DNA from: Escherichia phage JEP8
Strand: one strand, 5' to 3'
Sequence record: MT764208.1
DNA: 64,000 nucleotides
The notes beneath the pieces are model-generated. The model was not told where the DNA came from and searched no databases. It worked only from the letters and a program-made list of their open reading frames with translations. Each line of letters starts with the position of its first letter. Position 1 is the first letter of the stretch. Positions 26,519 to 55,112 of this stretch are shown here, one piece after another. Both the position numbers and the translations under genes were made by a program.

Positions 26519-26996
26519 CTAAATCATTGCAATATTTTAGTGCCTTAGTTTGAAATTCTGCGCTGTTAAGTTCTTCATAACGGTCATAATCACCGTTTAA
26601 TGCTGCCTTTCTTGCTTCTTGCTCTATCTGCATGTCAGACATGATAATACAGCGATCCCGCGCTTTCATCTTCTCAAGTTGTATAGACTCTTCTTTCTGC
26701 TTGCGCAATTCTTCTTGACGCTTCTTTTCTTCTTGTGCTTTCTCTTCCCGCGCTTCTTTGATTGCATCCTTGAACATCTGCGTTTGTGGTGCTAAACCAA
26801 CTTTAACGCGATCTACGTCTCGACGTTCCATTTTAGAAATAAAGCATGATTCGATCTGATCATCACTTGCATATGCTGCTTTACATTCACGAAGCAAGAA
26901 AACCGGATCTGATTTAGCATTCATCATAGCTTCCATGTTGGCACAACCAGTAAGCATGAATGCAGCCGCAAGACCAATCAGTTTAATCATTTTCAT
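26511..26996 (-). CDS. putative lipoprotein with coiled-coil region
   Basis: 161 aa; N-terminal signal peptide ending in lipobox LTGC (MKMIKLIGLAAAFMLTGC); K/E-rich helical middle. Confidence 0.55.
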   Translation of the reverse strand: MKMIKLIGLAAAFMLTGCANMEAMMNAKSDPVFLLRECKAAYASDDQIESCFISKMERRDVDRVKVGLAPQTQMFKDAIKEAREEKAQEEKKRQEELRKQKEESIQLEKMKARDRCIIMSDMQIEQEARKAALNGDYDRYEELNSAEFQTKALKYCNDLAK

Positions 26997-27817
26997 TTAG
27001 TCACCTCACCGAAAATTGTAAATTGTCTACGATTCTCATCACCGAAAGATTCTACTACGTCGTTTACCTTGACGCAAGTCCCGCGCGGTAAAATTACTTC
27101 ACATTCGCAAGGATTCCATGCAATTGACCCAACAACAAAACCTTTATGATCTTTTACGTCAATTACCCACGATACATTACAAGAATGTTGCATCTTTCCG
27201 GTCATGGATTCATATCGATTCTCACAATAAAGGCTAGTGCTGTTTGATAGCCAGCCTCCAAAGATGATCGGTGTCATGCTGGTTGACACAAAGTTTTTAA
27301 AGGTAAATTCCTTATCTTCAATAATACGCTCTATTGTCTGAATGTCAAGATGTTGACCGCGATAAAGAGTACCGTTTAACTTTTCGGTTTTATCCATGAC
27401 GCAATCCATCAAATCAACAATCTCTGATATCTCATCGGTCATGTCTTCTTCCCCTAAGAGAGCACCATTTACCCATTCGTATTGTTCAGACACATAATCA
27501 CAGATTGCATTATATTCTGCTGGGGTTATGTTGTTATGTTTGTAATGTTTGAATACATTATCTCCAAAGTCTTCGGAGTGTACTTCATACATCACATTAA
27601 TGATTTTCTTGACAAATCCATAATCTTGTGTCTCACGCTCAAGGAAGCGGATAACCTTCACATAATCATCAAAGTTAATCTGATCGCTAATCATCTCAGT
27701 GATCATGTAACCATTAATCCCCTCGATGTCATATGTTTCGATGTAATTATCCATACGTTCCATCATTGATTCGCGTGATTCTTCTGAAAGACGAAAATCC
27801 TGTAATTGTTTGAACAT
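26993..27817 (-). CDS. ADP-ribosyltransferase, Alt/Mod-family paralog
   Basis: 274 aa; R-S-E triad context …GTLYRGQ…FKNFVSTS…ECEVILPRG… parallels the catalytic region of the adjacent Alt (…ILYRGM…FKNYVSTS…ECEILLPRG…). Confidence 0.75.
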   Translation of the reverse strand: MFKQLQDFRLSEESRESMMERMDNYIETYDIEGINGYMITEMISDQINFDDYVKVIRFLERETQDYGFVKKIINVMYEVHSEDFGDNVFKHYKHNNITPAEYNAICDYVSEQYEWVNGALLGEEDMTDEISEIVDLMDCVMDKTEKLNGTLYRGQHLDIQTIERIIEDKEFTFKNFVSTSMTPIIFGGWLSNSTSLYCENRYESMTGKMQHSCNVSWVIDVKDHKGFVVGSIAWNPCECEVILPRGTCVKVNDVVESFGDENRRQFTIFGEVTK

Positions 27818-27894: not shown

Positions 27895-29946
27895 TTACAT
27901 TTTAAATTTATCTGGCATTGCGTCTACAGATACCAGATCAGCGATAAGCTGACGTAGAGTTGCCTTATCTGCTTTCTTACGTTCGGTTTTAGCTTCGCTA
28001 ATGAAGCTGGAGAAAGACAGGTCAGAAGCAGGTTTAATAACACCTTCACGGATGAATGCATCACCGTCTGCGATCATCTCGCCAGATTCTTGTAATGCTG
28101 CCAGTTCATTTTTGTTCATAATATGTGCCTCAATGTAATAAGTTTCTTGTGAATCCGTCGATGCCGTAGCACGAGTTACCGTATCAAAGGATAACACAAC
28201 ACCGCGAGGAAGTAAAATCTCGCATTCTTTGTAAGCAAATGCTTTGTTACCTACTGGCAATACAGGGATGTTTTCCGCGCCAGCAATGGAGAAAGCAACA
28301 TTAGCGCCACCTTCACCGCGAGAGCCAGCCATAGAATCTACACCAGCAACGGCACTAGCCACGTTTGCATTCCAGCCGCCAAAAATGTTAGGTGCAAGGG
28401 AAGTGCTCACATAGTTTTTAAAGTAAAACGCTTTTTGCTTACGTGCAGTTTCCCACATTTGCGACCGGAAGTCCATACCACGATACAGAATAGTACCAGG
28501 ATCAAGTTTAACACCATAGTTAGAGAAGGCATTATCCAGTGCATCGCACATCTTGACCAATTCTTCTGGATCTGCGATTCCCTCAAACTCTTCCAGCTTA
28601 CGATCAGTTAGGAAGTTGTTCATATTGATGTATGCTGCATCGGCATATTCGCTCAACACAAAACCTTCCGCGCCCGGCAGATCAAGATCAATATCTGCCA
28701 TCATTTCACCCATGTTGCTAGCAATTGCTTCAAACATACCGGACGCAACATTACGAAGGGCATCGGTTTTAATCTGGGTGATATGACTACGCAGCATTTC
28801 AGCTTTTACATCTGCTGGCATAGACTGGTCTACTCGATCCATTGCCAGGGCGGTGATCTTGTTTTCAAATACTTCCTCGCTCATGATTTCTTTTAAGCGT
28901 TTGATTGATGCTGCGATAACTTCCGCAGACAACGGATCATATTGATCCTGAACTTTTACCAGTTCGCTTACTGCGTATTTTGCATCGGCTTCGCTTTCAA
29001 AAATAGTACGCATGAAACCATAGCGAGTGATAATATCACTTGTCCAGTCATTCAGAGAACGGGCGGTTGAACGTTCTAAGGCTTGACGGTCAATCAGAGT
29101 ATTAAACTGTTTCTTAGGTTCTGCTTCGGTGATATCTTCTTCCGGTTTAAGATTAATTTTTTCTGGATGATTCACGTAGTCGCTGTTATAGGTCGCTTGA
29201 GTTTTCAGCATTTCTTCTTTAGTCAAACGAGATTTAGCCGCTACGCGTTGTTCTGCTTCCGCGTTTCGTTCTTCTTCTGACACAAGACTAGCCGCATACG
29301 CCTCATCTTTAGTCAGAGATTCACCAGTAGCCTTAGATACCCAGCGATCACCTAAATCACTTTCTACTTTAGTGAACAAGGATTCATCAAGTTTAATCCC
29401 TTTAATCTTATCAATCGCCATCCCGCGACGCTTGACAACAACTAAAGCGATCTTTTTGCTGGTCATTACTTCCTGCTGGAATACTTCAAACTTCGGTGTA
29501 CGACGCACCAAACGCTCTATAACGCGCTTAACCAGTTCGGTCTTACCTTTCATGCGGGATACGTTAAAACGGAACATAACAGCGTCTAATTGCGCTTTAC
29601 GGGCTGTTTCCATAACCACATCAAAAGCACTTGCCATAACTGCAATCGGGTTATCGCCTAGACCATTTTTAAGCTGTACAATACGACCGCTTTTGTTCAT
29701 TTCGCACAGTACAACATGTGCGGTTTTGTCACCCATACGAATGATTTTAGGTGTTTTGTTGGTGAAGTTACAAAGACGGACAATCACATCTTTATCGCGT
29801 GTCTGTACTGCAAAAAGCTGTTTAGGATTCTGCTTAGGCTTTAAGCACTGTACCGGAGCAATACTGCCAAAGTTTTCTTCCTCTTCCGTCAACAGCCATT
29901 TCTCGAAAGATTCAATCATTAGATCGTCGATTTCTAAGTTAAACAT
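27895..29946 (-). CDS. alt: Alt ADP-ribosyltransferase (packaged RNAP-modifying enzyme)
   Basis: 683 aa (T4 Alt is 682 aa); conserved ART motifs; located after gene 54 as in T4. Confidence 0.9.
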   Translation of the reverse strand: MFNLEIDDLMIESFEKWLLTEEEENFGSIAPVQCLKPKQNPKQLFAVQTRDKDVIVRLCNFTNKTPKIIRMGDKTAHVVLCEMNKSGRIVQLKNGLGDNPIAVMASAFDVVMETARKAQLDAVMFRFNVSRMKGKTELVKRVIERLVRRTPKFEVFQQEVMTSKKIALVVVKRRGMAIDKIKGIKLDESLFTKVESDLGDRWVSKATGESLTKDEAYAASLVSEEERNAEAEQRVAAKSRLTKEEMLKTQATYNSDYVNHPEKINLKPEEDITEAEPKKQFNTLIDRQALERSTARSLNDWTSDIITRYGFMRTIFESEADAKYAVSELVKVQDQYDPLSAEVIAASIKRLKEIMSEEVFENKITALAMDRVDQSMPADVKAEMLRSHITQIKTDALRNVASGMFEAIASNMGEMMADIDLDLPGAEGFVLSEYADAAYINMNNFLTDRKLEEFEGIADPEELVKMCDALDNAFSNYGVKLDPGTILYRGMDFRSQMWETARKQKAFYFKNYVSTSLAPNIFGGWNANVASAVAGVDSMAGSRGEGGANVAFSIAGAENIPVLPVGNKAFAYKECEILLPRGVVLSFDTVTRATASTDSQETYYIEAHIMNKNELAALQESGEMIADGDAFIREGVIKPASDLSFSSFISEAKTERKKADKATLRQLIADLVSVDAMPDKFKM

Positions 29947-30226: not shown

Positions 30227-30262
30227 TTGATACTCCTTAGTAGTTCGTTTCGGTGTGGGTGT

Positions 30263-30291
30263 ATTATGCTATACACCCTCTGTTATGTCAA
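30263..30291 (-). promoter_or_regulatory. PeSL-type early promoter (TTGACA-N17-CATAAT; -10 embedded in hairpin GGGTGTAT…ATACACCC)
   Basis: minus-strand reading; followed by conserved leader …CCGAAACGAA…GGAG…ATG; approximate. Confidence 0.55.
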
Positions 30292-30297
30292 CAACTT

Positions 30298-30477
30298 TTA
30301 GAACATTTTTGAAATTAATTCTGCTTTGATTTCGCAGAGAACACCTAAAGATTTCTCGTCACCCGCTTTTGCTGCTTCTGATTGCATTTTTGAAATGGCT
30401 TCAATGTCAGTGCAATTATAAGCCGCTTGAACTTTAGCGATTGCGATGATTGCCGATTCGATGGTTAATTGTTTCAT
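30298..30477 (-). CDS. hypothetical protein (59 aa)
   Basis: ORF MKQLTIESAIIAIAKVQ… with RBS GGAG; not in ORF track; approximate. Confidence 0.3.
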   Translation of the reverse strand: MKQLTIESAIIAIAKVQAAYNCTDIEAISKMQSEAAKAGDEKSLGVLCEIKAELISKMF

Positions 30478-30509
30478 GTTTGATTCTCCTTTCGTTTCGG
30501 TATGGGTGT

Positions 30510-30538
30510 ATTATAGGGGATCGATGATCCCCTGTCAA
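30510..30538 (-). promoter_or_regulatory. PeSL-type early promoter (TTGACA-GGGGATCatcGATCCCC-TATAAT)
   Basis: perfect -35 and -10 hexamers with 17-nt palindromic spacer; approximate. Confidence 0.6.
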
Positions 30539-30546
30539 CAAATTTT

Positions 30547-31083
30547 TTAGTTATTTTTTAATTGCTCATCTTGCAATAGGGCAATCACATGCTGGCGATG
30601 TTCTTCCGATTGAGGCACACCGAAAAAGTTTGTTTTGTAGAAATACTCTAATCGGTCTTCTCGTGTGCTCTCTTCCATCATGATCGCGGGTAGTCCGAGA
30701 TTTCGGAAACGTCGCTTTTCTGCTGGCGTAAAATCACTGTAATACAACATAGAATCATCATTACAAGCAATGCTAAACTCATCCTTCATAAAGGAGAATA
30801 TTGCGTTTAAACGCTGTTTACCGTCCACGATTTCGATCTCATAGCGAGAGCCATCATCAATCTTAGCCATTGCGATAGCACCAACCGGAAAATCATTAAT
30901 CAGGTTTTCGATAAACATACGTTTGTTTTCGGTGTCCCATACTAAAGGACGCTGATAATCTGGGTTCATGTTGATATAGCCATCTTCTAACCATGCATCA
31001 TAAACAGAGATGACAAAGTTTTTAGTATTGGTATAGTAACGGCGTTTAGGCGTTAAACGGCGTTTAGGCGTTAAACGGTTCAT
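30547..31083 (-). CDS. DUF262 / ParB-like nuclease-domain protein
   Basis: start placed at ATG preceded by AGGAG (MNRLTPKRR…); hallmark motifs …NPDYQRPLVW… and …EIVDGKQRLNAIF… (DGQQR-like); lacks any C-terminal HNH/DUF1524 module. Confidence 0.65.
   Translation of the reverse strand: MNRLTPKRRLTPKRRYYTNTKNFVISVYDAWLEDGYINMNPDYQRPLVWDTENKRMFIENLINDFPVGAIAMAKIDDGSRYEIEIVDGKQRLNAIFSFMKDEFSIACNDDSMLYYSDFTPAEKRRFRNLGLPAIMMEESTREDRLEYFYKTNFFGVPQSEEHRQHVIALLQDEQLKNN
31041..31076. repeat. exact 18-bp tandem duplication (GGCGTTTAGGCGTTAAAC x2) inside the DUF262 gene
   Basis: in-frame; encodes duplicated peptide LTPKRR-LTPKRR at the protein N-terminus. Confidence 0.8.
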
Positions 31084-31084
31084 G

Positions 31085-31414
31085 TTATAGTCTCCTGAAT
31101 GGATCATCACGTAAATCAATATCTTTTAAGAACTCATCCCATGAATGGCGGATGTTGTTCTTAATTCTCCAGATAAGAGCAGGGATTGAACGCTCTCCCA
31201 TCTGGAAGTATGGATCATATGATCCGTATGCCCAATATGCTACTACAATTCCACAATCAGCGCAATAGTATTCTATTTCACTTGCTGGCGACCAAAGTCC
31301 ATCAATATGATCGGTGATCTTGCTTTCGATGTTATGGCTATGACAATCAGGGCAACGGATGCAATGACCTTGTTTATCGTAATTTGACGTTAGCGAATAC
31401 TTAAACAATCTCAT
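31085..31414 (-). CDS. zinc-ribbon protein (two CxxC pairs)
   Basis: 109 aa; …CIRCPDCHSH…CADCG…; translationally coupled (TAATG) to the upstream methyltransferase-like gene. Confidence 0.45.
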   Translation of the reverse strand: MRLFKYSLTSNYDKQGHCIRCPDCHSHNIESKITDHIDGLWSPASEIEYYCADCGIVVAYWAYGSYDPYFQMGERSIPALIWRIKNNIRHSWDEFLKDIDLRDDPFRRL

Positions 31415-32130
31415 TATAGATCCTTATTTGCTTCAAATACTGCCTTTGCGAATCCTCGCGGGGTAAGTGACCTTATAGTCTTTGTTCTGGTTCCTTTCCC
31501 GCCTAGCTTAGAATGCTGTTTACTGTACCCTTTATTAATCTGCAACGGTTTCTTTTCTGGCATTATAAAGCCTTGTCCGGTCCATAAGCAAGTCTTTTTC
31601 GGGTACATATCACGGGCGGCAATATACTCAGGAAACGTAGGATGCTTATCATCTTCCGGCAAATAACCGCCATATTCCCACGGATGGAACATGTAATCAG
31701 GCTTACGCCACATGCTAGAGATAACGCTTACAGGATTCTCTATCATGTAGGGAACTCCGAGCCATTCACCCAAATAAGCGGTTATTTTAGCTGCCCGTAC
31801 ATCATGAACTTGAATCAATGGTCCTTGTTCTCGTTTCTTTCGTTCAAAGTGCGCAGCGCCACTAACAGCTAAATTGGTGCACGGTGGGAATGCAAAGATA
31901 ATATCCGGTTTCCCCCATTCAAGGTCCATTGCTCTTTCCAGCCAGTTCAAATCAATCCAGGTGTTTACATAGGTAATGTTTGGATGTTCAAATCTGGTAT
32001 TATACTTTTTGTATGTACCGTGGTCGGCGTCATCCGCATTAAAGCAGACTACCTTATGACCTGCTTTAGCCCATTCTAGCCCCATTATCCCCGATCCGTC
32101 AAAGTTGCAGAATATTAATTTTTGTTTCAT
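31414..32130 (-). CDS. C5-cytosine methyltransferase-like protein, truncated (catalytic motifs I, IV, VI only)
   Basis: 238 aa; motif I FCNFDGSGIMG, motif IV PDIIFAFPPCTNLAVSG (PC Cys), motif VI YMIENPVSV (ENV-like); colinear with the M.HhaI N-terminal half; no target-recognition domain or motifs IX/X visible. Confidence 0.6.
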   Translation of the reverse strand: MKQKLIFCNFDGSGIMGLEWAKAGHKVVCFNADDADHGTYKKYNTRFEHPNITYVNTWIDLNWLERAMDLEWGKPDIIFAFPPCTNLAVSGAAHFERKKREQGPLIQVHDVRAAKITAYLGEWLGVPYMIENPVSVISSMWRKPDYMFHPWEYGGYLPEDDKHPTFPEYIAARDMYPKKTCLWTGQGFIMPEKKPLQINKGYSKQHSKLGGKGTRTKTIRSLTPRGFAKAVFEANKDL

Positions 32131-32620: not shown

Positions 32621-32660
32621 TGTTTGATTCTCCTAAGTGGTATCTCGTCTTGATGGTTGT

Positions 32661-32689
32661 ATTGTAGGGGAGTTATCCTCCCCTGTCAA
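32661..32689 (-). promoter_or_regulatory. PeSL-type early promoter (TTGACA-GGGGAGgataaCTCCCC-TACAAT)
   Basis: minus-strand; palindromic 17-nt spacer; approximate. Confidence 0.55.
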
Positions 32690-32703
32690 CACTTTTTATA
32701 AAA

Positions 32704-32871
32704 TTATTTGTTAATTTCTGGTGCGTTGCTAGGATAGTAACCTTCTTTAACTCCGAGGTATTTCGCAACCATCCCTACAATCTTCTGTGCTACTACAATG
32801 TCAAATTTCAGATAATCTTCGCCGTGGGTTTCAATGATATATGCTTCACATGCTGCTTTAGTCTCGAACAT
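32704..32871 (-). CDS. hypothetical protein (55 aa), paralog of 35962-36129
   Basis: MFETKAACEAYIIETHGEDYLKFDIVVAQKIVGMVAKYLGVKEGYYPSNAPEINK; about 85-90% identical at DNA and protein level to the copy at 35962-36129. Confidence 0.45.
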   Translation of the reverse strand: MFETKAACEAYIIETHGEDYLKFDIVVAQKIVGMVAKYLGVKEGYYPSNAPEINK

Positions 32872-32904
32872 TTTGATTCTCCTATTTCGTTTCGGTATGT
32901 GTGT

Positions 32905-32933
32905 ATTATAGGGGATCTCCCGATCCCCGTCAA
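32905..32933 (-). promoter_or_regulatory. PeSL-type early promoter (TTGACG-GGGATCgggaGATCCCC-TATAAT)
   Basis: minus-strand; approximate. Confidence 0.55.
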
Positions 32934-32947
32934 CAACTTTTTTAAAA

Positions 32948-33229
32948 TTATTCGTGATTAGTTTCGATGTTGTGCATTTTGCACCAATTCAGCCAATCAC
33001 CCAGATCCTGATAGTTAATGCTTTTATCTGCTGCCATCGTTTTTGTCTTGATACCCATATGTGCGTTATGAGTAAGCATTTTTACAGTGAACTCAATTTT
33101 ATCGCCTTTAGCTTTAACATCAACCAGTTTGGTCCACTGGCTACCAGCGCCGCGAATGTTCATACCAACGATGTTTCCGATGTATGCTTCTTTGTTTTTC
33201 AGGATTTCGGTTGCTTTGATGAATTTCAT
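32948..33229 (-). CDS. hypothetical protein (93 aa)
   Basis: ORF behind PeSL promoter; no motif recognised. Confidence 0.4.
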   Translation of the reverse strand: MKFIKATEILKNKEAYIGNIVGMNIRGAGSQWTKLVDVKAKGDKIEFTVKMLTHNAHMGIKTKTMAADKSINYQDLGDWLNWCKMHNIETNHE

Positions 33230-33262
33230 TTTTGATTCTCCAGTTCGTTTCGGTATGGGTGT

Positions 33263-33291
33263 ATTATGCTATGTTCTTACTTTGGTGTCAA
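33263..33291 (-). promoter_or_regulatory. PeSL-type early promoter (TTGACA-N17-CATAAT)
   Basis: minus-strand; approximate. Confidence 0.5.
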
Positions 33292-33299
33292 CAACTTTT

Positions 33300-33569: not shown

Positions 33570-33609
33570 TGTTTGATTCTCCTAAGTGGTATCTCGTTTC
33601 GATGTGTGT

Positions 33610-33639
33610 ATTATGCTATAGGCGTGATCTGGTGTCAAT
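33610..33639 (-). promoter_or_regulatory. PeSL-type early promoter (TTGACA-N18-CATAAT)
   Basis: minus-strand; approximate. Confidence 0.5.
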
Positions 33640-33663
33640 GCCTTTTTTAAAATTTTATGCAAT

Positions 33664-33688
33664 AAAAAAGCCGACACTAAGGTCGGCT
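33664..33688 (-). terminator. rho-independent terminator (minus strand)
   Basis: AGCCGAC-actaa-GGTCGGCT hairpin with plus-side A-run. Confidence 0.5.
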
Positions 33689-33695
33689 AATAAAA

Positions 33696-34004
33696 TCATT
33701 TAGACAAATAATCATTCTGTGCAATCCGGTCGGCGTATGCTGGTGTTATGTCAATCGCCAGCACTTTAACGCGTGCTTTCTTGCGACCTGGGTTTTCTCG
33801 TAACCAGTGCTCATGGCCGTGAACATTTTTATACTGCGATGCTTCTTCGAAGGTACGGATCGGACCTGGGTAATCAGCGTAAAGGATCTCTAGATCTTCG
33901 GTGATGTAAAAATATACATCGTAATTGCTGTTCTCTAGCTTAAGCAGAGACTTTCGGAACATTGGGAGATTTTCGCGGGTAAATTCAAAGATATTATCTT
34001 TCAT
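33696..34004 (-). CDS. HxHW-motif small protein, paralog family member a
   Basis: 102 aa; …YDVYFYITEDLEILYADY…NVHGHEHWLRENPGRKKARVKVLAIDITPAYAD…. Confidence 0.5.
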   Translation of the reverse strand: MKDNIFEFTRENLPMFRKSLLKLENSNYDVYFYITEDLEILYADYPGPIRTFEEASQYKNVHGHEHWLRENPGRKKARVKVLAIDITPAYADRIAQNDYLSK

Positions 34005-34027
34005 AGTATTATCCTCAATAGTTGGAT

Positions 34028-34048
34028 GAAAAGGGGCTTAACGCCCCG
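34028..34048 (-). terminator. rho-independent terminator (minus strand), repeat of the 29987 hairpin
   Basis: GGGGC-ttaac-GCCCC with A-run. Confidence 0.5.
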
Positions 34049-34052
34049 TATA

Positions 34053-34340
34053 TTAAAACAGTCCTTCCTGTACACCGTAGTAGAGTTCATCGCTGATAAT
34101 TTCATTAATGCGACGGTGTGCATATTCCTGATTTGCGAAGTTGTCAGCAAGTTCTACTTTAGTTTCGCCGTCATGAGTCCATTTAGTGATAACTTTACCA
34201 TCGGCAAATTTGAAGTTGAACTCTTTAGCTACCGCATCGCGTACCAGACGTGCGAACTTGTTGTTACGGATTGCATTATCGGTTTCGTGTGCAGCGTGAG
34301 CAAATTTGTTAACTTTCAGAGTGATGGTGATGTATGCCAT
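34053..34340 (-). CDS. hypothetical protein (95 aa), paralog of 37346-37657
   Basis: shares …ARLVRDAVAKEFNFKF… with …TLIREVRKALAKEFNTKI… in the 37346-37657 protein. Confidence 0.45.
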   Translation of the reverse strand: MAYITITLKVNKFAHAAHETDNAIRNNKFARLVRDAVAKEFNFKFADGKVITKWTHDGETKVELADNFANQEYAHRRINEIISDELYYGVQEGLF

Positions 34341-34386
34341 AATTTGATTCTCCTAGTTAGAAAGTGTATCTCGTTTCGATGGGTGT

Positions 34387-34415
34387 ATTATGCTATACAC
34401 CCGATCTTATGTCAA
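34387..34415 (-). promoter_or_regulatory. PeSL-type early promoter (TTGACA-N17-CATAAT; -10 inside hairpin GGGTGTAT…ATACACCC)
   Basis: minus-strand; approximate. Confidence 0.55.
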
Positions 34416-34421
34416 CACTTT

Positions 34422-34715
34422 TTATAAAATAATTTTTTGATATTTTTCTATGATGTTTGTGTAGGTCACATCAACCGCGAGCACCGTTGCTTCGAATCCA
34501 CCGTTTAGCCAATGGCTATGATCGTGATCGTTAAAGAAACCGAGGCCAGTGCGAAGACCTTCTTTATATTCGGCGCGTACATTCAGTTTGTCGTCGATAA
34601 ACAGATAAAACCATGAATTTTTACTAGGATTGATGATACAACCTTTCAGATTAGGGAGAATATCACGACTAAGAATAAACTTATCACCTACTTTGAACAT
34701 AATATTAGTCCTCAC
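34422..34715 (-). CDS. HxHW-motif small protein, paralog b
   Basis: 97 aa; …WFYLFIDDKLNVRAEY…NDHDHSHWLNGGFEATVLAVDVTYTN…. Confidence 0.5.
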   Translation of the reverse strand: MRTNIMFKVGDKFILSRDILPNLKGCIINPSKNSWFYLFIDDKLNVRAEYKEGLRTGLGFFNDHDHSHWLNGGFEATVLAVDVTYTNIIEKYQKIIL

Positions 34716-35025
34716 TTATAAGGTCAAACCAATTGTTTTTCGCATAATGCTTAATGCGTGCTTGATCTGCTTCCGCTGGTGATAGATTCCATGCAACCAC
34801 TACAACTTCTGACGCATCGTCATCCGTTTTTGATACCCAATGATTGTGATTCATACAGTTATTTGCTATCGAGTGAGCAAATGATTTCATCACTGGAGAC
34901 GTATAATCATAGTAACGGATTTTCAGATTTTCATCAACATACAAGTAGATCGTATACGGCTTATATTCAGTAACCAATAACAGACAGTTACGCAATTCTG
35001 GGAAAATCTTTTTAGTTAATTTCAT
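34705..35025 (-). CDS. HxHW-motif small protein, paralog c
   Basis: 106 aa; …YTIYLYVDENLKIRYYDY…NHNHWVSKTDDDASEVVVVAWNLSPAEAD…. Confidence 0.5.
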   Translation of the reverse strand: MKLTKKIFPELRNCLLLVTEYKPYTIYLYVDENLKIRYYDYTSPVMKSFAHSIANNCMNHNHWVSKTDDDASEVVVVAWNLSPAEADQARIKHYAKNNWFDLISED

Positions 35026-35227
35026 ATTCTAGTTCTCCGTAATACACAGTAATCCATTTTTCTTCATACTTTGTATCTTTCCAACACACAATCCCGTTTA
35101 CTGTGCAATCTTTGGAATTGACGAATGATTCATATTGTTCTGCATCTTCCATCATTGCATGAGCGGTCTTTTCATCGAATATATCGCAGATCGCTTTATA
35201 TGCTCGATAATCTTTAAATTTGCTCAT
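35012..35227 (-). CDS. hypothetical protein (MSKFKDY…), tandem paralog 1
   Basis: start placed at ATG of MSKFKDYRAYK…; adjacent gene starts MSKFKEYKAYQ…. Confidence 0.4.
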   Translation of the reverse strand: MSKFKDYRAYKAICDIFDEKTAHAMMEDAEQYESFVNSKDCTVNGIVCWKDTKYEEKWITVYYGELEYEIN

Positions 35228-35229
35228 AA

Positions 35230-35439
35230 TTAACACCACTCAAGAGTTTTTGAAAACACATCTATCCATTGTTGAGTATATGCGGTTTCTTTCCATGACA
35301 CAATACCAGTCGAATAATGGTTTTTGTTTCCAGAAAAGGACGGGCATTTTGATGCATCTTCCATCATCTTTTCGGCGAACTCTGGTGCGTATACTCGCAA
35401 AATCTGTTGATATGCTTTGTATTCTTTAAATTTGCTCAT
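35230..35439 (-). CDS. hypothetical protein (MSKFKEY…), tandem paralog 2
   Basis: start placed at MSKFKEYKAYQQ…; shares N-terminus and …MMEDA…GIV.WK.T.Y… with the neighbouring gene. Confidence 0.4.
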   Translation of the reverse strand: MSKFKEYKAYQQILRVYAPEFAEKMMEDASKCPSFSGNKNHYSTGIVSWKETAYTQQWIDVFSKTLEWC

Positions 35440-35704
35440 AATCATTCACTACCTTATCAGCTTCTTTTGTTGTTTTTACATCAACTGCGATAACTCGTAA
35501 AGGTTCGTCATGGTTCCACCAGTGGTCATGAATATCGGCTTGTGATTTATCACCAAAGGAATCACGAATATCATTTTTACATTTATAGCTAATGTGACCG
35601 TCATAGTCAACATAAAGGTAATTATCGAAAATCGGCGTTTTTAAGATCATACCGAAAAATCTTTCTTTGTGTGTCTTATCCAGCGTTGCAGTAATTCGCA
35701 TCAT
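35426..35704 (-). CDS. HxHW-motif small protein, paralog d
   Basis: 92 aa; …FDNYLYVDYDGHISYKC…DIHDHWWNHDEPLRVIAVDVKTTKEAD…. Confidence 0.5.
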   Translation of the reverse strand: MMRITATLDKTHKERFFGMILKTPIFDNYLYVDYDGHISYKCKNDIRDSFGDKSQADIHDHWWNHDEPLRVIAVDVKTTKEADKVVNDYEQI

Positions 35705-35716
35705 AATATATTCCTC

Positions 35717-35896
35717 TTAGAAAGGGATGGTCATTTCTTGAGCTTGTATGTTCTCGTTAGGATTAAACTTCATCCAACCGATATTGTCTACCAGCATATT
35801 TACATTTTTATCATATCCTACGTGAGTAGTCAACACTAAATGTGCTTTACCTTCAACGATGATTTCCATGTACTTCTGAACTTCGATAGCTTTCAT
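35717..35896 (-). CDS. hypothetical protein (59 aa)
   Basis: ORF MKAIEVQKYMEIIVEGKAHL… behind PeSL promoter; not in ORF track; approximate. Confidence 0.3.
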   Translation of the reverse strand: MKAIEVQKYMEIIVEGKAHLVLTTHVGYDKNVNMLVDNIGWMKFNPNENIQAQEMTIPF

Positions 35897-35929
35897 TTTT
35901 GATTCTCCGTTTGTTGTCTTGATGGGAGT

Positions 35930-35958
35930 ATCTTACTACTCCCTTTAATCATTGTCAA
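35930..35958 (-). promoter_or_regulatory. PeSL-type early promoter (TTGACA-N17-TAAGAT within GGGAGTA…TACTCCC hairpin)
   Basis: minus-strand; approximate. Confidence 0.45.
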
Positions 35959-35961
35959 CTA

Positions 35962-36129
35962 TTATTTGTTAATTTCTGGTGCGTTGCTTGGATAGTAACC
36001 TTCTTTAACACCCAGATATTTTGCAACCATTCCGGTGATCTTCTGTGCTACTACGATATCGAATTTCAGGTAGTCTTCACCGTGGTTTGCTACAATGTAT
36101 GCTTCGCATTCTGCTTTAGTCGGGAACAT
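35962..36129 (-). CDS. hypothetical protein (55 aa), paralog of 32704-32871
   Basis: start placed at MFPTKAECEAYIVANHGEDYLKFDIVVAQKITGMVAKYLGVKEGYYPSNAPEINK. Confidence 0.45.
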   Translation of the reverse strand: MFPTKAECEAYIVANHGEDYLKFDIVVAQKITGMVAKYLGVKEGYYPSNAPEINK

Positions 36130-36163
36130 TTTTGATTCTCCTATATCTCGTTGGTATGTGTGC

Positions 36164-36192
36164 ATTATAGGGGATCACCGATCCCCTGTCAA
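36164..36192 (-). promoter_or_regulatory. PeSL-type early promoter (TTGACA-GGGGATCaccGATCCCC-TATAAT)
   Basis: minus-strand; approximate. Confidence 0.6.
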
Positions 36193-36197
36193 CAACT

Positions 36198-36491
36198 TTA
36201 TAATGCTTTATATGCGTATTTCATAAATTTGTCTGCCACTTCATTGGCATGTTCAGCTTCTACGCCTGATTCGAGAACAATAGCTAGGTCGGTTTCGTCA
36301 TTCCCGCCGTACCAATGATTTGATGTTCGATTTTTTTCAATTGGAAATTGGTCACTTTTATCTGTGCGACAAAATACATCTAAATGCTCGTCGATGTAAA
36401 AGATCCAATCTTCATAAAGAATAACGGTATTAGCCAGATTTTTATTGCCTTCAACGAAAGGTTCGGCTACAAACAAATTAGTATGTTCCAT
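36198..36491 (-). CDS. HxHW-motif small protein, paralog e
   Basis: start placed at MEHTNLFVAEP… (RBS GAGGAAA); …VILYEDWIFYIDEHLDVF…SNHWYGGNDETDLAIVLESGVEAEHAN…. Confidence 0.5.
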   Translation of the reverse strand: MEHTNLFVAEPFVEGNKNLANTVILYEDWIFYIDEHLDVFCRTDKSDQFPIEKNRTSNHWYGGNDETDLAIVLESGVEAEHANEVADKFMKYAYKAL

Positions 36492-36507
36492 AGTAATTTC
36501 CTCAAAA

Positions 36508-36699
36508 TTATACAGCTTCGTAAACTTCCCAATGTCCAACACCAGCACGCTTAACGAAAAGGTTTTCTTTGATGTTATTCATAAACGTCTGGATGGATTT
36601 AATGCGGTTTGAAGGTTTCCATTCTTCGTTGGCATTGCGTCGATACATCATAACATTACCAGTTCGCTTATATTCAGCAACCATTTTAAGACCACACAT
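36508..36699 (-). CDS. hypothetical protein (63 aa)
   Basis: ORF MCGLKMVAEYKRTGNVMMY…; no motif recognised. Confidence 0.35.
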   Translation of the reverse strand: MCGLKMVAEYKRTGNVMMYRRNANEEWKPSNRIKSIQTFMNNIKENLFVKRAGVGHWEVYEAV

Positions 36700-36756
36700 A
36701 ATATTATCCTCAATTTGTGGGAGAGTATTACCCCTCCCAATGATTGTTATGTTATA

Positions 36757-37077
36757 TCACACAAAATGGCGTGTCAATGCTTCTTTTGCGGTTCCGCTAA
36801 GACTTTCGATCTCGCCTGGCATAACATCAACCGCCAGAACTTCTACAACATCCTCGGACCCTAACCAGTGAGTATGACCTTTGTAGAACTTGATAACCAG
36901 ACTACCTTCCTCGTCCCATTTAACGCTATCGCTAGCCCACCACACATCACCGTCGATAAAGTTGATGTAAAGCACACTACGCCACATTGAATTAATTACT
37001 TTCAATACTGCGCCTTTCATCTCTTCCACGGTATGGTCTTCCATTTTGAAGACCTCACCTACCTGAACTTTTGCCAT
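36757..37077 (-). CDS. HxHW-motif small protein, paralog f
   Basis: 106 aa; …VLYINFIDGDVWWASD…KGHTHWLGSEDVVEVLAVDVMPGEIES…. Confidence 0.5.
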   Translation of the reverse strand: MAKVQVGEVFKMEDHTVEEMKGAVLKVINSMWRSVLYINFIDGDVWWASDSVKWDEEGSLVIKFYKGHTHWLGSEDVVEVLAVDVMPGEIESLSGTAKEALTRHFV

Positions 37078-37274: not shown

Positions 37275-37308
37275 GATTGATTCTCCTAGTTCGTTTCGGT
37301 ATGTGTGT

Positions 37309-37337
37309 AGTATAGGGGATCGGTGATCCCCTGTCAA
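37309..37337 (-). promoter_or_regulatory. PeSL-type early promoter (TTGACA-GGGGATCggtGATCCCC-TATACT)
   Basis: minus-strand; approximate. Confidence 0.55.
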
Positions 37338-37345
37338 CAACTTTT

Positions 37346-37657
37346 TTAAAGTTTTTCCATGATAACGGTCATAATTACATCTTCTGCGCGAGCGGTCAGA
37401 TTATCAGCGTCAGCATGTGGGCGGTTGGTTGTTACAGAGATAACACCGTTGCGCACTGGTTTGATATTGATATCAAGATGATCCGCGAAACGTTCGCCAG
37501 TTACAGAATGAATTTTGGTGTTAAATTCTTTTGCCAGTGCCTTGCGAACTTCACGAATCAGGGTAGCGTTTTTCAGTTGGTTCTCCGCGCTCATGGTCTT
37601 CTGGGTGTTAATGGTTCCGTCGAAGTCAATCATTGGCAGCGTTACGATGTATTTCAT
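37346..37657 (-). CDS. hypothetical protein (103 aa), paralog of 34053-34340
   Basis: shared AKEFN motif region with 34053-34340. Confidence 0.45.
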   Translation of the reverse strand: MKYIVTLPMIDFDGTINTQKTMSAENQLKNATLIREVRKALAKEFNTKIHSVTGERFADHLDINIKPVRNGVISVTTNRPHADADNLTARAEDVIMTVIMEKL

Positions 37658-37702
37658 TTTTGATTCTCCGTTTAAGAAAGTGTGTTTCGTTTTGATGTGT
37701 GT

Positions 37703-37731
37703 AGTATAGGGGATACGTGATCCCCTGTCAA
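37703..37731 (-). promoter_or_regulatory. PeSL-type early promoter (TTGACA-GGGGATacgtGATCCCC-TATACT)
   Basis: minus-strand; approximate. Confidence 0.55.
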
Positions 37732-37744
37732 CAACTTTTTTGAA

Positions 37745-38221
37745 TTATTTTTCTTGATGCTCGCGCTCGTACTTTTCGAAATAAAATTCTACTGGCTGGT
37801 CATGAATTGACAGCAAGCCAAAGCGTTTAGCCGCTCGCAATCCCATATTGCGCTGAATGTACTTCTGGAAGTTCTCGCGTATACACTTACGCCAGTATTC
37901 TAAGCCCATACAGCTTTTATAAAGATTGCATTGCACACACGCCGGATTCATGTTATCAAGTATATCATGCTCCGGTTTATGCATTCCTACGACCTTATAC
38001 TTCCACAATCCATCATCATTACGGGCAATTCGTCCATTTTCATCATAGACTACCTTTGAGCGTCGCAATACTGGTTTGATGTGGTCTGCGTGCCAGCGAT
38101 CCCCTAGTTCCTCGCCACAATAGGCACAACGTCCACCGTATTTCATTTTCAGGATCTGGCGTTGCTCTTTCTTTGACAATTTTTTAGGTTTAGGGGCTTT
38201 CGCCCCTTCATTATCACACAT
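37745..38221 (-). mobile_element. free-standing HNH endonuclease (putative homing endonuclease) gene
   Basis: 158 aa; HNH signature …GRCAYCGEEL…WHADHIKPV…DNMNPACVQCN…; sits between DNA ligase and the hyperplastic small-gene region. Confidence 0.7.
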
Positions 38222-39710
38222 CGAATACCTCTTTTACTGTATTTGCAGTGGTCTTGTCGTAGCGAATACGTTTGATGATTGGGAGAAATAAAGAGAACTC
38301 CGGTTCATCTTCTTTACGTGATTTGCTGCGAATGTACCCGTTGCATGTCATCTCAATGACTTTTCCAATCAGGTTATGACGGTCAGCCCATAACATTTCT
38401 CGGTCGAGTTCATTTCGACTATCGAACGGAATTACACGTTCGATACCATCATCACCTTTTTCGGTTGTGGTGTCGGTCAATCCCGATCCGGTGTTAGTCA
38501 TCATTCGTCCGCACGCACTACGGACAGTAAAACCGCCTACCTTATTAGGATCTTTACTATGCGGATATACATCAACAATTTCCGCGTCGAAGTCAATCAC
38601 TTCTTTAAATTTAACCTGATCTTTACTGCGACGATCTTCAAATACACCATGCAGATTTTTAAGGATAATACCTTCTAATCCCATGTTTACATAGCGATGA
38701 TATACTTCGCGAGCTTCATCGAGATTGTTAACTACGGTATTTTCGATTATCTGAACACGAGGATCGTTAAGTTCTTCAACAATCTGTTTTAGTTCTTCGA
38801 ATCGATCTTTATACTGCTTCGTTGCTTTCTCGTTACCGTAGTACACATCACGGTCGATAACATCCCAGACAGTGTAAACAATACATTGGGCTTCTTCTTT
38901 TGGAATAGTTCCTTTCAGTGATTTGTTGAGGATACCATTTCCGGTCTGACGATCTGCAACAACGGATTCTTTCACTGCTTCCGCTACTGGCGTTAATGGC
39001 ATTTCCTCTTCTTCAAATATCCATGACAGAGTACCATCATAAACGCTCTCAACGAAGTTCTGCGCTGGTGTTTGCGAAAGGGTAGGCATATATACCAATT
39101 CGCCATCTAGAACAATTCCACGGCCTCGTAGACGCTCTAAAACCGCAAACAAATCATCAAGCCCTTGATAGGTATTACCTGAGCGGGTATAGATTGCTAA
39201 TGTTTCCCCGTCAATATCAGCCATACCACGAGCGCCATCGCTTTTAAGTTGTGCATACGCCGGATACTTGATATTAGCAATAGTCTTATCAGAACATGAC
39301 GATGCAAGGTGGCACGGTTGCTGAGGGATCAGTTTCTTCCATACCTTGTTTGCAGTGGTAGCGGAACAGCCGCATTCCAGATCACGATTCAGGACCATCA
39401 TTGCAACTTTAGCATCATCCTCTGACAAGCAAGTCAGAGTATCGGTAACTAGTTGTAATGCTGCATTACCAGTTACTTGACGCGTGGCAAGTTTATTTTT
39501 AAAGACCTGTAATGCACCGGATAAAGACAATACAGACGAATAGCGAGATGGTTTATCGTATTTCTTTACGCCAAACGTAACCTGTTTGCAATATGCCAGA
39601 TAAAAGCATTCTTTCAGCGTTTCATTGCTCGCGGATTCTTTCAGAATCTTTTCTTTCAGCGATGTTTTGTCTGTTGCTGCAAGCTGATTAATGATATTAA
39701 GAATTGACAT
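38214..39710 (-). CDS. 30: ATP-dependent DNA ligase (gp30-like)
   Basis: start placed at ATG after GAGGTG; adenylation motif KSDGARG and colinear similarity to T4 DNA ligase. Confidence 0.93.
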   Translation of the reverse strand: MSILNIINQLAATDKTSLKEKILKESASNETLKECFYLAYCKQVTFGVKKYDKPSRYSSVLSLSGALQVFKNKLATRQVTGNAALQLVTDTLTCLSEDDAKVAMMVLNRDLECGCSATTANKVWKKLIPQQPCHLASSCSDKTIANIKYPAYAQLKSDGARGMADIDGETLAIYTRSGNTYQGLDDLFAVLERLRGRGIVLDGELVYMPTLSQTPAQNFVESVYDGTLSWIFEEEEMPLTPVAEAVKESVVADRQTGNGILNKSLKGTIPKEEAQCIVYTVWDVIDRDVYYGNEKATKQYKDRFEELKQIVEELNDPRVQIIENTVVNNLDEAREVYHRYVNMGLEGIILKNLHGVFEDRRSKDQVKFKEVIDFDAEIVDVYPHSKDPNKVGGFTVRSACGRMMTNTGSGLTDTTTEKGDDGIERVIPFDSRNELDREMLWADRHNLIGKVIEMTCNGYIRSKSRKEDEPEFSLFLPIIKRIRYDKTTANTVKEVFDV

Positions 39711-40176
39711 TTTCACCTCGTTTTGTTAAACGTTCACGAATATCATTGAGGATACTACAAAATTCCGATTCAGTCAATATAGTCTTTAACGGATCAGTTC
39801 CACCTATACTATGACGCAATTTCTTATTTCCGGTAGCGAGTAATGCTTTACAAAATTCTGGGTTATTCCGTGCCATCGTAACAAATGCCAGATGTACCAG
39901 TCTGTAATAATGCTCACTCATTCGATGAATCGGGCGACCCTGAAAATATAACATGTGATTCTCTATCTTTTCGGTCCTTCCGGTTCTTTTTGCTTTGCCA
40001 CCGTGCATCAAAAAGATTTCTCTTTGTCTCTGAGGGTTCTTAAATCTTAGCCCCTGTAAAAATCCTTCTGTGCTGTTAATATCGCAACCAAATAGACGGA
40101 ATGGTCTTTTATTGAAATTACTCAATTCACCCGATGGATAAGGTCCACCCGCATAGATATCAATTTCAGAAGTCAT
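39697..40176 (-). CDS. NADAR-domain (YbiA-like, DUF1768) protein
   Basis: 159 aa; …GELSNFNKRPFRLFGCDINSTEGFLQGLRFK… fits the NADAR signature; coordinates from ORF track. Confidence 0.6.
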   Translation of the reverse strand: MTSEIDIYAGGPYPSGELSNFNKRPFRLFGCDINSTEGFLQGLRFKNPQRQREIFLMHGGKAKRTGRTEKIENHMLYFQGRPIHRMSEHYYRLVHLAFVTMARNNPEFCKALLATGNKKLRHSIGGTDPLKTILTESEFCSILNDIRERLTKRGENVNS

Positions 40177-48053: not shown

Positions 48054-48221
48054 TCACTTTTTAACACAAAAGAACTTAGTATTTCTGTTAACTTCGCTAT
48101 CCTGCTGCAATTCCTGCACAGCTTCAAAACAATTTTGATATGATGAAAACTCTACGCTGGTAACAGTTCCTTTATTATATACGCCTACGCTAACGGAAAG
48201 CAATAACCATATTGTAGCCAT
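48054..48221 (-). CDS. hypothetical small protein with hydrophobic N-terminus (55 aa), tandem paralog 1
   Basis: MATIWLLLSVSVGVYNKGTVTSVEF…; not in ORF track; approximate. Confidence 0.3.
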   Translation of the reverse strand: MATIWLLLSVSVGVYNKGTVTSVEFSSYQNCFEAVQELQQDSEVNRNTKFFCVKK

Positions 48222-48396
48222 TAGTTCACCTTTTGTTTTTCAACGCAATATAGATTCATAAAGCGTTTATTGTCTTCGCGGATAATCTCGCGAGCTTTAA
48301 CGAAATCCTGCTTTGTTGCAAATTCAATGCTTGACATATTTCCGTAATTATACATTGAATTGCTGATTGCAATCAATAACCATACAGTAGCCATTA
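48221..48396 (-). CDS. hypothetical small protein with hydrophobic N-terminus (57 aa), tandem paralog 2
   Basis: MATVWLLIAISNSMYNYGNMSSIEF…; stop overlaps start of paralog 1; approximate. Confidence 0.3.
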
Positions 48397-53495: not shown

Positions 53496-55112
53496 CTCTT
53501 TTTCAAAAGTTTTTACGATATACATGATAGTGCTCAATTCAGACGGCGCTACTGTTTCTGTGTAGCCATCCGGCATATCTTCTTTTGAGATATAGGAAGT
53601 TTTACCTTTCATCGCTTCCTTGATCTTGTTCTCTAAGTCTAAGATCTTTTGACCGTCTTGTAAAGTCAATTCATAAAAGATCTCGTGGTTGAATTTGGAA
53701 AGTCGAGATTGACCTCCAATTCGTTCTTTTGTTGTTCTATTGGTTATTCCAAATTTAACGCCAACGAATATTTTTTCTTTTATTAGTTTTTGAATATACA
53801 ATACTCCTTTTTTTAAGGTATTATATCCATATTGTGCGCATTTAGGACAACGAGTTCCTTTCTGAAAGTTTGTTATTGTCGGTGTAAATTCATGGCCTTC
53901 ACTACACACCAAATTTAACTTTGTAGACACACCGTTCCATTCTCCAATAAATCCATTAAATATGATATTTTCTTTTTCGAAAATTGGTTTAAGTCTTTCA
54001 AGATATTCTTCTTTTGATAATGCATAATTATTTGCACATTTAGGACAACGAGTTCCATTCTGAAAACTGGATATGATAGGAGTGAAATTGTGGCCTTCAC
54101 AACACACCAAATCCAATTTTGTTACGTTACCTTTCCACTCACCAACGATTCCATTACAGGTTATATTTTCTTTAATAAATATCGGTGCTAATTTTTCGAA
54201 ATATTCTTCCTTTGGAATCAATTTACGTTCTCTTAATTTAAGAGCTTTACATTTCGGACAGCGGCGACCTTGTTGAAAAACTGCTATGCTCGGGGTGTAA
54301 TTGTGTTTTTCATTACACACCAAATTCAGCCTAGTTCTGCTACCTTTCCACTCACCAACGATTCCATTACAGGTTATATTTTCTTCAACGAAGATTGGTT
54401 TTAATCTTTTAAAATATTCTTCTTTTGATATTTTTCTACTGTTTCTCCAGTTGATAATACCGCAGGTCGAACACCTATTACCGGATTGAAAACCGTTTAC
54501 AGTCGGTGTAAATTTATGGCCTTCACTACACAATAAATTCATTTTTGTTGTGCTTCCGTTCCATTCTCCAATAAATCCATTAAATACGATATTTTCTTTT
54601 TCGAAAATTGGTTTAAGTCTTTCAAGATATTCTTCTTTTGATAGTAATTTCAATTCTCTTAATTTAAGAGCTTTACATTTAGGACAACGACTTCCGACCT
54701 GAAATGCTGTTATCGTCGGAGTAAATTCATGATCCTCACAACATGTTAAGTTTAGTTTTGTGTGCACGCCTTTCCATTCTCCGACGAATCCATTAAACTT
54801 TATATTTTCCTCAATAAAGATTGGTTTAAGTTTTTTATAATATTCTTCTTTTGATAGGGCATAATTATTTGCGCATCTAGAGCATCGTTTACCTTTTTGA
54901 AAATCTGATATTCTTGGTGTAAATTCATGTCCTTCACAACACACCAAACCCAATTTTGTTACGTTACCTTTCCACTCACCAACAAATCCATTAAATACGA
55001 TATTTTCTTTTTCGAAAATTGGTTTAAGTCTTTCGTAATATTCCAATGGGCTAATCGAGTTATAATTTTTCTTAACCCATTCAATCTCATGCGCCTTACG
55101 TACCAACATCAT
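53484..55112 (-). CDS. tandem-repeat zinc-ribbon protein (six repeats of about 70 aa; homing-endonuclease-associated-repeat-like)
   Basis: start placed at MMLVRKAHEIEW…; six repeats of consensus EEY.ERLKPIFEKENI.FNGF.GEWKG..TKLNL.C.EGHEFTP.I..FQ.G.RCPKC; C-terminal 110 aa non-repetitive. Confidence 0.5.
   Translation of the reverse strand: MMLVRKAHEIEWVKKNYNSISPLEYYERLKPIFEKENIVFNGFVGEWKGNVTKLGLVCCEGHEFTPRISDFQKGKRCSRCANNYALSKEEYYKKLKPIFIEENIKFNGFVGEWKGVHTKLNLTCCEDHEFTPTITAFQVGSRCPKCKALKLRELKLLSKEEYLERLKPIFEKENIVFNGFIGEWNGSTTKMNLLCSEGHKFTPTVNGFQSGNRCSTCGIINWRNSRKISKEEYFKRLKPIFVEENITCNGIVGEWKGSRTRLNLVCNEKHNYTPSIAVFQQGRRCPKCKALKLRERKLIPKEEYFEKLAPIFIKENITCNGIVGEWKGNVTKLDLVCCEGHNFTPIISSFQNGTRCPKCANNYALSKEEYLERLKPIFEKENIIFNGFIGEWNGVSTKLNLVCSEGHEFTPTITNFQKGTRCPKCAQYGYNTLKKGVLYIQKLIKEKIFVGVKFGITNRTTKERIGGQSRLSKFNHEIFYELTLQDGQKILDLENKIKEAMKGKTSYISKEDMPDGYTETVAPSELSTIMYIVKTFEKELTA
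53600..54990 (-). repeat. about 210-bp tandem coding repeats (x6) within the zinc-ribbon repeat gene
   Basis: repeated DNA segments correspond to the protein repeats; boundaries approximate. Confidence 0.6.

Follow-up and report, generated by a model that had tools for sequence, protein, structure and literature searches.

Six diverged paralogues with a shared HxHW motif in the hyperplastic region of Escherichia phage JEP8

Adaptive genes are believed to reside in the hyperplastic regions of T4-type phages, and almost no ORFan of the RB49 type has a known function. In phages RB49 and phi1, these regions are rich in non-essential ORFans and in cassettes termed PeSL, intergenic repeats of about 70–100 bp located directly before an ORFan, each of which combines a strong sigma-70-type early promoter with a stem-loop terminator (Arbiol et al., 2010, PMC2839356). 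The corresponding region of Escherichia phage JEP8 was analysed in a stretch of 64,000 nucleotides (sequence record MT764208.1), here called the window, where six small genes, p1 to p6 (Table 1), encode diverged proteins that share a short motif, HxHW. Over the 5 kb around this cluster, the window is 93–98% identical to 58 Escherichia and Shigella phages of the genus Krischvirus (RB49, phi1, JSE, ECD7, ELT4, and others), and by this similarity it is the genome of a Krischvirus, an RB49-like phage of the T4 type. The original prediction, made from the letters of the window alone, had placed the genes in an early region, and this placement was upheld: they lie in a hyperplastic region that is rich in early promoters and flanked by alt and gene 30 (DNA ligase, 38214–39716). 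Their order is the same in RB49, where each counterpart is annotated as a "hypothetical protein". The interval from alt to gene 30 is syntenic in RB49, JSE, G2248, and other relatives, with differing gene content.

The cassettes described in RB49 and phi1 occupy the same region as p1–p6, consist of the same promoter and stem-loop elements, and likewise contain non-essential database-orphan genes that are inserted or replaced between close relatives (PMC2839356; Comeau et al., 2014, PMC4122927). The six JEP8 proteins are database orphans as well, all of their true matches in sets of 5.8 billion and 1.84 billion sequences lying on contigs of T4-like phages. However, these two papers treat the ORFs (open reading frames) of the region as unrelated ORFans, and neither the word "paralog" nor the numbers of the ORFs in question turned up when PMC2839356 was searched for them. 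A literature search for the RB49 proteins by accession, for a paralogous family in the region, for such an HxHW motif, and for anti-defence genes of Krischvirus found none of these.

Homology of p1–p6 and the conserved motif

Profile comparisons support the earlier claim that the six proteins are paralogous to one another and belong to a family not recognised before. Leave-one-out hidden Markov models (HMMs) were scored against all 344 ORFs of at least 40 amino acids in the window, and every omitted copy was the top match outside the training set (E-values of 3e-12 for p1, 7e-8 for p2, 9e-12 for p3, 7e-7 for p4, 1e-3 for p5, and 3e-8 for p6), the next window ORF having an E-value of at least 0.07. 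When each paralogue group, with its orthologues added, was compared with the other five by hhalign, probabilities of 95.6–98.6% and E-values from 1e-8 to 7e-16 were obtained. The paralogues are mutually 16–31% identical, and pairwise BLASTP links p1 with p3 (31% identity, 4e-11) and, at 1e-4 or better, p1 with p2, p1 with p6, and p2 with p4. The weakest member is p5, which on its own has the leave-one-out value given above and no pairwise BLASTP link; its orthologue group is joined to the rest by hhalign at 97.3% (E 2e-11).

The HxHW block is near-invariant across the family, as had been proposed, with the exception of p5, which is SNHW in the window, HNHW in most orthologues, and DNHW in some. 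The string H.HW occurs five times among the window ORFs of at least 40 amino acids, and all five occurrences belong to this family. Among 28 diverse members, invariance is confined to the H and W, and at least 90% retain the first histidine. A third histidine is found only in p1 and p2, at position i-2 and not i-3. The second block of the original prediction, [VL]AVD[VI], is degenerate in p3 (VAWNL) and p5 (LESGV).

All six ORFs lie on the minus strand at the places first assigned to them, apart from the start of p2, which is the ATG at 34700 and not the GTG at 34715. This correction was made because the GTG lies within a Shine–Dalgarno (SD) sequence, GTGAGGA, and because the orthologues and phrog_17255 start with MFKVGDKF; p2 and p3 therefore do not overlap. 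An SD sequence of the GAGG type precedes the ATG of every family gene. For p1, this is GAGGA located 8 nt 5' of the ATG, while that of p2 is supplied by the final codons of p3, GAG GAC TAA. The proteins are predicted to be cytoplasmic, soluble, and mildly acidic.

In agreement with the description of the family as unrecognised, no characterised family matches p1–p6: searches of Pfam, NCBIfam, and PADLOC gave no match above cut-off, and PHROGs distributes the same orthologues over five entries (Table 1), all of "unknown function". Whereas PHROGs splits these proteins in five, the comparisons made here unite them, together with divergent and fused members, in one. On this sequence evidence, the HxHW family is real, and the merging of five PHROGs into it is undescribed so far. 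JAB/PROCT, cupin, KOW, and T4_Y03C, which appeared as sub-threshold Pfam matches or in third-party annotation of metagenome-assembled genomes, did not recur across subfamilies and were rejected.

Distribution, allelic variation and selection

When the six-sequence profile was run in a word-indexed search against 5.8 billion proteins, 89 were recovered, all of them on phage-sized contigs and all orthologues (identity of 55% or more) of a p1–p6 protein, and a broadened profile found only extra allelic variants in the same set. By tblastn against 50,697 phage records, each paralogue was found in 53–56 records, every one of which is among the approximately 58 records of Krischvirus. In 53 phage records, p2 is at least 91% identical, while p4 has two allele classes within the genus (51 records at 90% identity or more and five at about 58%), as does p5 (about 70% identity). 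A scan of IMG/VR returned two loci only. HMMER was also run exhaustively over 1.84 billion cluster representatives and yielded 23 matches at E ≤ 1e-3, of which 12 are new, divergent true members, all carrying H-[N/D]-H-W and all from uncultured T4-like phages; three long repeat proteins (P0135–P0137) were judged spurious, having matched through repeated beta-hairpins. Searched for beyond the window, the motif was thus found in Krischvirus and in these 12 divergent members, a distribution by which the family is old and lineage-restricted to Krischvirus and related uncultured phages of the T4 type. No further copy was found elsewhere among the window ORFs by HMM, or in the remainder of the JSE genome.

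The divergent members too occur as multi-copy clusters at the ligase–alt position. One 20 kb T4-like contig (L019), with a ligase 72% identical to that of the window, has two members between ligase and alt. Another contig, of 2.1 kb (L016, SRR8048117_15661), carries four family genes amounting to five domains, and one of these genes (P0124, at 823–1434 of the contig) encodes 203 amino acids with two p2-like HxHW domains in tandem. In addition, a 260-amino-acid ORF at 318–1100 of contig L018 (Logan SRR8048112_18013) consists of two C domains followed by a p3-like HxHW domain that is 42% identical to p3. The C domains are named for C1 and C2, two proteins encoded between p4 and p3 in the window that are 44% identical to each other (4e-19), and by BLASTP the fused ORF matches C1 (4e-9 and 2e-6), C2 (6e-10), and p3 (4e-21).

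An 88-amino-acid ORF just upstream of p6 was found in JSE, G2248, and UPWr_E1 and is absent from the window (JSE EpJSE_00215, L008 3801–4067; L004 3370–3636; L006 3552–3818). Compared with the family, it has an HMM E-value of about 0.015 and an hhalign probability of 24%, and Foldseek on BFVD (C4MZ33) gave an E-value of 3.5e-3 with template modelling (TM) scores of 0.60/0.68; this ORF may be a degenerate seventh family member.

Among single phages, JSE and kvi carry a frameshifted p1, a truncated p2 occurs on an IMG/VR contig (L003), and JSE has no p2, with a second p3-like copy in its place. Frameshifted and replaced copies of this kind show that p1–p6 are individually dispensable.

Selection was assessed on orthologues from 12 genomes by the Nei–Gojobori method (NG86), per gene and in 15-codon windows. 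The ratio of nonsynonymous to synonymous substitution rates (dN/dS) is 0.28 for p1, a value inflated by the frameshifted kvi allele, 0.11 for p2, 0.15 for p3, 0.16 for p4, 0.21 for p5, and 0.15 for p6; for comparison, it is 0.04 for ligase, 0.04 for the HNH endonuclease, and 0.03 for gene 30.3. No 15-codon window of the six genes has a ratio above 0.8. Indels and amino acid variation cluster in the segment directly before HxHW, where the ratio is below 0.5. The diversifying selection invoked by the original prediction was therefore not borne out at the orthologue level. Since the ratios of 0.11–0.28 stand against 0.04 for ligase, p1–p6 are functional genes, under a constraint looser than that of core genes. 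The paralogues are old, and each is under relaxed but purifying constraint. Within single genes, neighbouring windows of 15 codons have synonymous diversities anywhere from 0 to about 0.5. This patchiness, along with the discrete allele classes of p4 and p5, suggests mosaic recombination of diverged lineages and not clock-like divergence.

Predicted fold and possible function

AlphaFold2 models made with the family alignment reached a predicted local distance difference test (pLDDT) score of 84.8 and a predicted TM score (pTM) of 0.80 for p1, and 89.9 and 0.85 for p6, and in two independent runs the p1 and p6 models have a common order of strands and helices and one topology. The predicted fold is composed of a short N-terminal strand and helix, three antiparallel strands in which the Y-x-Y-[IV]-D-[ED] block forms the second hairpin, a variable helix or hairpin, a loop or 3-10 turn that places HxHW between the sheet and the last strand, the long strand [VL]AVD[VI], and C-terminal helices. 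What had been described as an N-terminal hydrophobic segment thus corresponds to a beta-hairpin turn of the predicted fold. According to the models, p1–p6 are soluble single-domain alpha/beta proteins of 92–106 amino acids. Structural searches of the PDB and BFVD gave no significant match beyond the HxHW family itself, and the fold, which has no solved relative, is apparently new. Features that define other families were not found in these proteins, namely HxHxDH in an alpha-beta/beta-alpha sandwich of about 200 or more amino acids (metallo-beta-lactamase, MBL), the E...HxHx7Sx2D motif with an MPN fold (JAB/MPN or JAMM metalloprotease), and the complete beta-beta-beta-alpha-beta-alpha core with an acetyl-CoA pyrophosphate-binding loop (GNAT acetyltransferase).

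As a tentative proposal, which is possible but short of an expectation, the HxHW domain would be a compact binding module with paralogue-specific targets in the host or its defences. The proteins would be made early in infection from the sigma-70 promoters of the PeSL cassettes and would act as homo- or hetero-oligomers, together with the co-translated C1 and C2. The HxHW loop and the acidic stretch after it would form a putative metal (Zn2+-type) or small-ligand site through which a host or defence component could be engaged, and the segment before HxHW and the diverged surfaces would confer on each paralogue its own specificity. Oligomers and partners are suggested by the two-domain chain of P0124, the C-C-HxHW arrangement of the L018 ORF, and the five domains within 2.1 kb of L016, and C1 and C2 are probable partners of the family. 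That a function is maintained is suggested by the dN/dS values and by the presence of each paralogue in 53–56 of about 58 Krischvirus records, and a role of HxHW as a metal or nucleotide ligand is chemically plausible. A stronger form of the proposal, in which HxHW and C proteins build, within the first minutes of an infection by Krischvirus-type phages, a modular metal-bridged hetero-oligomer whose interchangeable paralogous subunits would each neutralise a different host factor or defence effector, as a combinatorial counter-defence array with a new fold, is distinctly unlikely.

Several observations weigh against a binding module of this kind. None of the known anti-defence or host-takeover proteins resembles the fold. 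The first histidine is missing in some p5 alleles (SNHW, DNHW), the Asp position of the VAVD strand is occupied by D, N, or G in different family members, and the 88-amino-acid ORF has FHPGNGHLI and no HxHW. As the conserved potential ligands are only two, either water or another subunit would have to complete a metal site. Both fusions are known from single short metagenomic contigs, and because the genes abut, the fusions could be one-base indels or assembly artefacts.

Other explanations account for part of the same evidence. Passenger ORFans of no use to the phage, multiplied by PeSL-mediated recombination, would be in keeping with the shuffling and duplication of ORFans by PeSL cassettes (PMC2839356), with three further paralogue pairs (A, B, and C) in the region, and with the several copies that are frameshifted or replaced in single phages. 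Such a neutral origin is nonetheless improbable in view of the purifying dN/dS in six of six genes, a motif kept among paralogues of such low identity and in a second phage lineage, the near-universal and syntenic occurrence of the genes in the genus, and the intact SD sequence and translational coupling of every copy. Very small metal-dependent enzymes, such as phosphoesterases or hydrolases whose substrate is a nucleotide signal or a metabolite of the host, would have HxH and carboxylates as catalytic residues, perhaps across a dimer; an acidic loop does follow the invariant HxH, and the tandem fusion fits a dimeric active site. Yet the proteins have neither HxHxDH nor a second motif of known hydrolase families, their length of about 95 amino acids is far under the size of the MBL, PHP, cupin, and metallophosphoesterase folds, Pfam and NCBIfam give no match, and six diverged copies per genome would be unusual, all of which makes an enzyme unlikely. 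Sponges of immune signalling nucleotides, comparable to Tad1, Tad2, and Acb2 and with a different signal for each paralogue, would also be small, early, multi-copy, and probably oligomeric, and the conserved His/Trp pair could stack on bases. Neither PADLOC nor Pfam gives a signal, however, positive selection is not seen in the 12 genomes, and there is no similarity of fold or sequence to Tad1, Tad2/DUF2829, or Acb2 (one DUF2829 protein was matched at a probability of 0.20 and an E-value of about 1), leaving sponges a poor prospect.

The pneumococcal Pht domain (PF04270; 2cs7, 3zfj) has in common with the HxHW family a short beta-rich unit and an acidic residue about 21–25 residues before H-x-H-[YW]. 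Its site binds Zn2+ via Asp or Glu and three histidines, the ligands in PhtA being D173, H194, H197, and H199 (PMC3842936). If p1–p6 were remote homologues of this zinc domain, the acid of YID[ED] and the histidine pair would be the zinc ligands. In this direction, PhtD was the sole match of the family profile in all PDB sequences (E 7.3), YIDEDLxV...HxHW could be aligned on YTT[DE]DGYIF...H[YS]H[YW] with a similar spacing of about 24 residues, which brought the two blocks of the original prediction onto the acidic and the histidine ligands of the Pht site, and a first hhalign comparison, with six repeats, gave 39.8%. An improved Pht alignment lowered this value to 12.7%, however, and the PhtD match was lost with a broader family profile. 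Additionally, the Pht HMM does not put the family first among the window ORFs, PF04270 never appears as a match, and Pht domains are not among the top fold matches of the HxHW models. Pht domains have an HxxHxH triad and belong to large streptococcal surface proteins, whereas the HxHW family is without the triad or its spacing and has an extra strand and helix. Homology to Pht was therefore rejected and is barely credible.

The HxHW family fits the known pattern of lineage-specific ORFan expansion in T4-type hyperplastic regions. In place of formerly scattered hypothetical proteins, an experimental target is now defined that consists of six genes with a common motif and a single likely complex. 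If p1–p6 do form a host-takeover or anti-defence module, they would represent a new fold for that role and an example of paralogue arrays arising from PeSL-mediated shuffling; if not, they would be an ordinary lineage-specific ORFan expansion.

Promoters, transcription units and neighbouring genes

The window contains ten PeSL copies, located from 30.2 to 37.8 kb (Table 1), with promoter matches of 11–12 out of 12. Their layout is an SD sequence, a stem-loop (GGGGATC...GATCCCC or a variant), and TTGACA-17-TATAAT, and the stem-loop occurs in two sequence variants, AGGGGATC..GATCCCCT and GGGTGTATTATGCTATACACCC. The eighth copy has a perfect TTGACA-17-TATAAT promoter and corresponds to PeSL206/205, which in RB49 drove approximately 13,000 Miller units of lacZ expression and was by this measurement a very strong promoter, with most other PeSL206/205 clones bearing promoter-down mutations (PMC2839356). 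No family gene stands directly behind a PeSL; the six are distal genes, in second to seventh place, of three short units that are each headed by a PeSL. Adjacent genes in p4-C2-C1-p3-p2 overlap by up to 20 nt or are separated by at most 4 nt, spacings that imply coupled translation. The paralogue pairs A, B, and C give the region the look of a stretch assembled by repeated segmental duplication.

Table 1. Coordinates in the window of the six HxHW genes, the PeSL copies, and the paralogous genes interspersed with them.
Feature	Coordinates	Strand	Description
p1	33696–34004	−	102 aa; RB49 ORF197 orthologue; phrog_9345; motif HGHEHW ... VLAIDI
p2	34422–34700	−	92 aa; RB49 ORF199; phrog_17255; motif HDHSHW ... 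VLAVDV
p3	34705–35025	−	106 aa; RB49 ORF200; phrog_9345; motif NHNHW ... VVAWNL
p4	35426–35704	−	92 aa; RB49 ORF203; phrog_15972; motif IHDHW ... VIAVDV
p5	36198–36491	−	97 aa; RB49 ORF206; phrog_15965; motif SNHW ... IVLESGV
p6	36757–37077	−	106 aa; RB49 ORF208; phrog_16486; motif GHTHW ... VLAVDV
PeSL copy 1	30242–30299	−
PeSL copy 2	30489–30558	−
PeSL copy 3	32640–32709	−
PeSL copy 4	32884–32953	−
PeSL copy 5	33242–33299	−
PeSL copy 6	33589–33658	−
PeSL copy 7	34366–34435	−	heads unit A1 - hairpin - p1; promoter match and repeat family
PeSL copy 8 (PeSL206/205)	36143–36212	−	unit B2 - o59 - p4 - C2 - C1 - p3 - p2; repeats D1/D2
PeSL copy 9	37288–37357	−	heads unit o60 - p6 - o63 - p5; repeat families D1-D3; TTGACA-17-TATACT, 11/12
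PeSL copy 10	37682–37751	−
Hairpin of A1 unit	34033–34047
Closing terminator of A1 unit	33669–33688
A1	34053–34340		pair A; phrog_7474
A2	37346–37657		pair A; phrog_7474
B1	32704–32871		pair B; phrog_8009; protein 89% identical to B2, 85% over 172 nt
B2	35962–36129		pair B; phrog_8009
C1	35012–35227	−	71 aa; phrog_8471; between p4 and p3
C2	35230–35445	−	71 aa; phrog_8471; between p4 and p3

Small tandem paralogues also occur on the minus strand elsewhere in the window, at 48054–48221 and 48221–48394 (36% identity) and at 53915–54100, 54800–54937, and 54959–55090 (51–67% identity), a pattern that points to tandem duplication of very small ORFs as a general trait of the JEP8 genome. Two adjoining minus-strand genes, at 26993–27817 and 27895–29946, encode Alt-like ADP-ribosyltransferase paralogues (37% identity over 109 amino acids, 2e-15).

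Just downstream of the cluster, a minus-strand gene at 30547–31119 encodes 190 amino acids with a GmrSD_N (DUF262) domain only (E 8e-20). It is accompanied on the same strand by genes for a 109-amino-acid zinc-ribbon-like protein (31085–31414) and for a protein of 238 amino acids (31414–32130) that is a DNA methyltransferase in the annotation of relatives and has no Pfam match here. At the position of this methyltransferase, G2248, JSE, UPWr_E1, Brandy, and kvi have a 672-bp gene.

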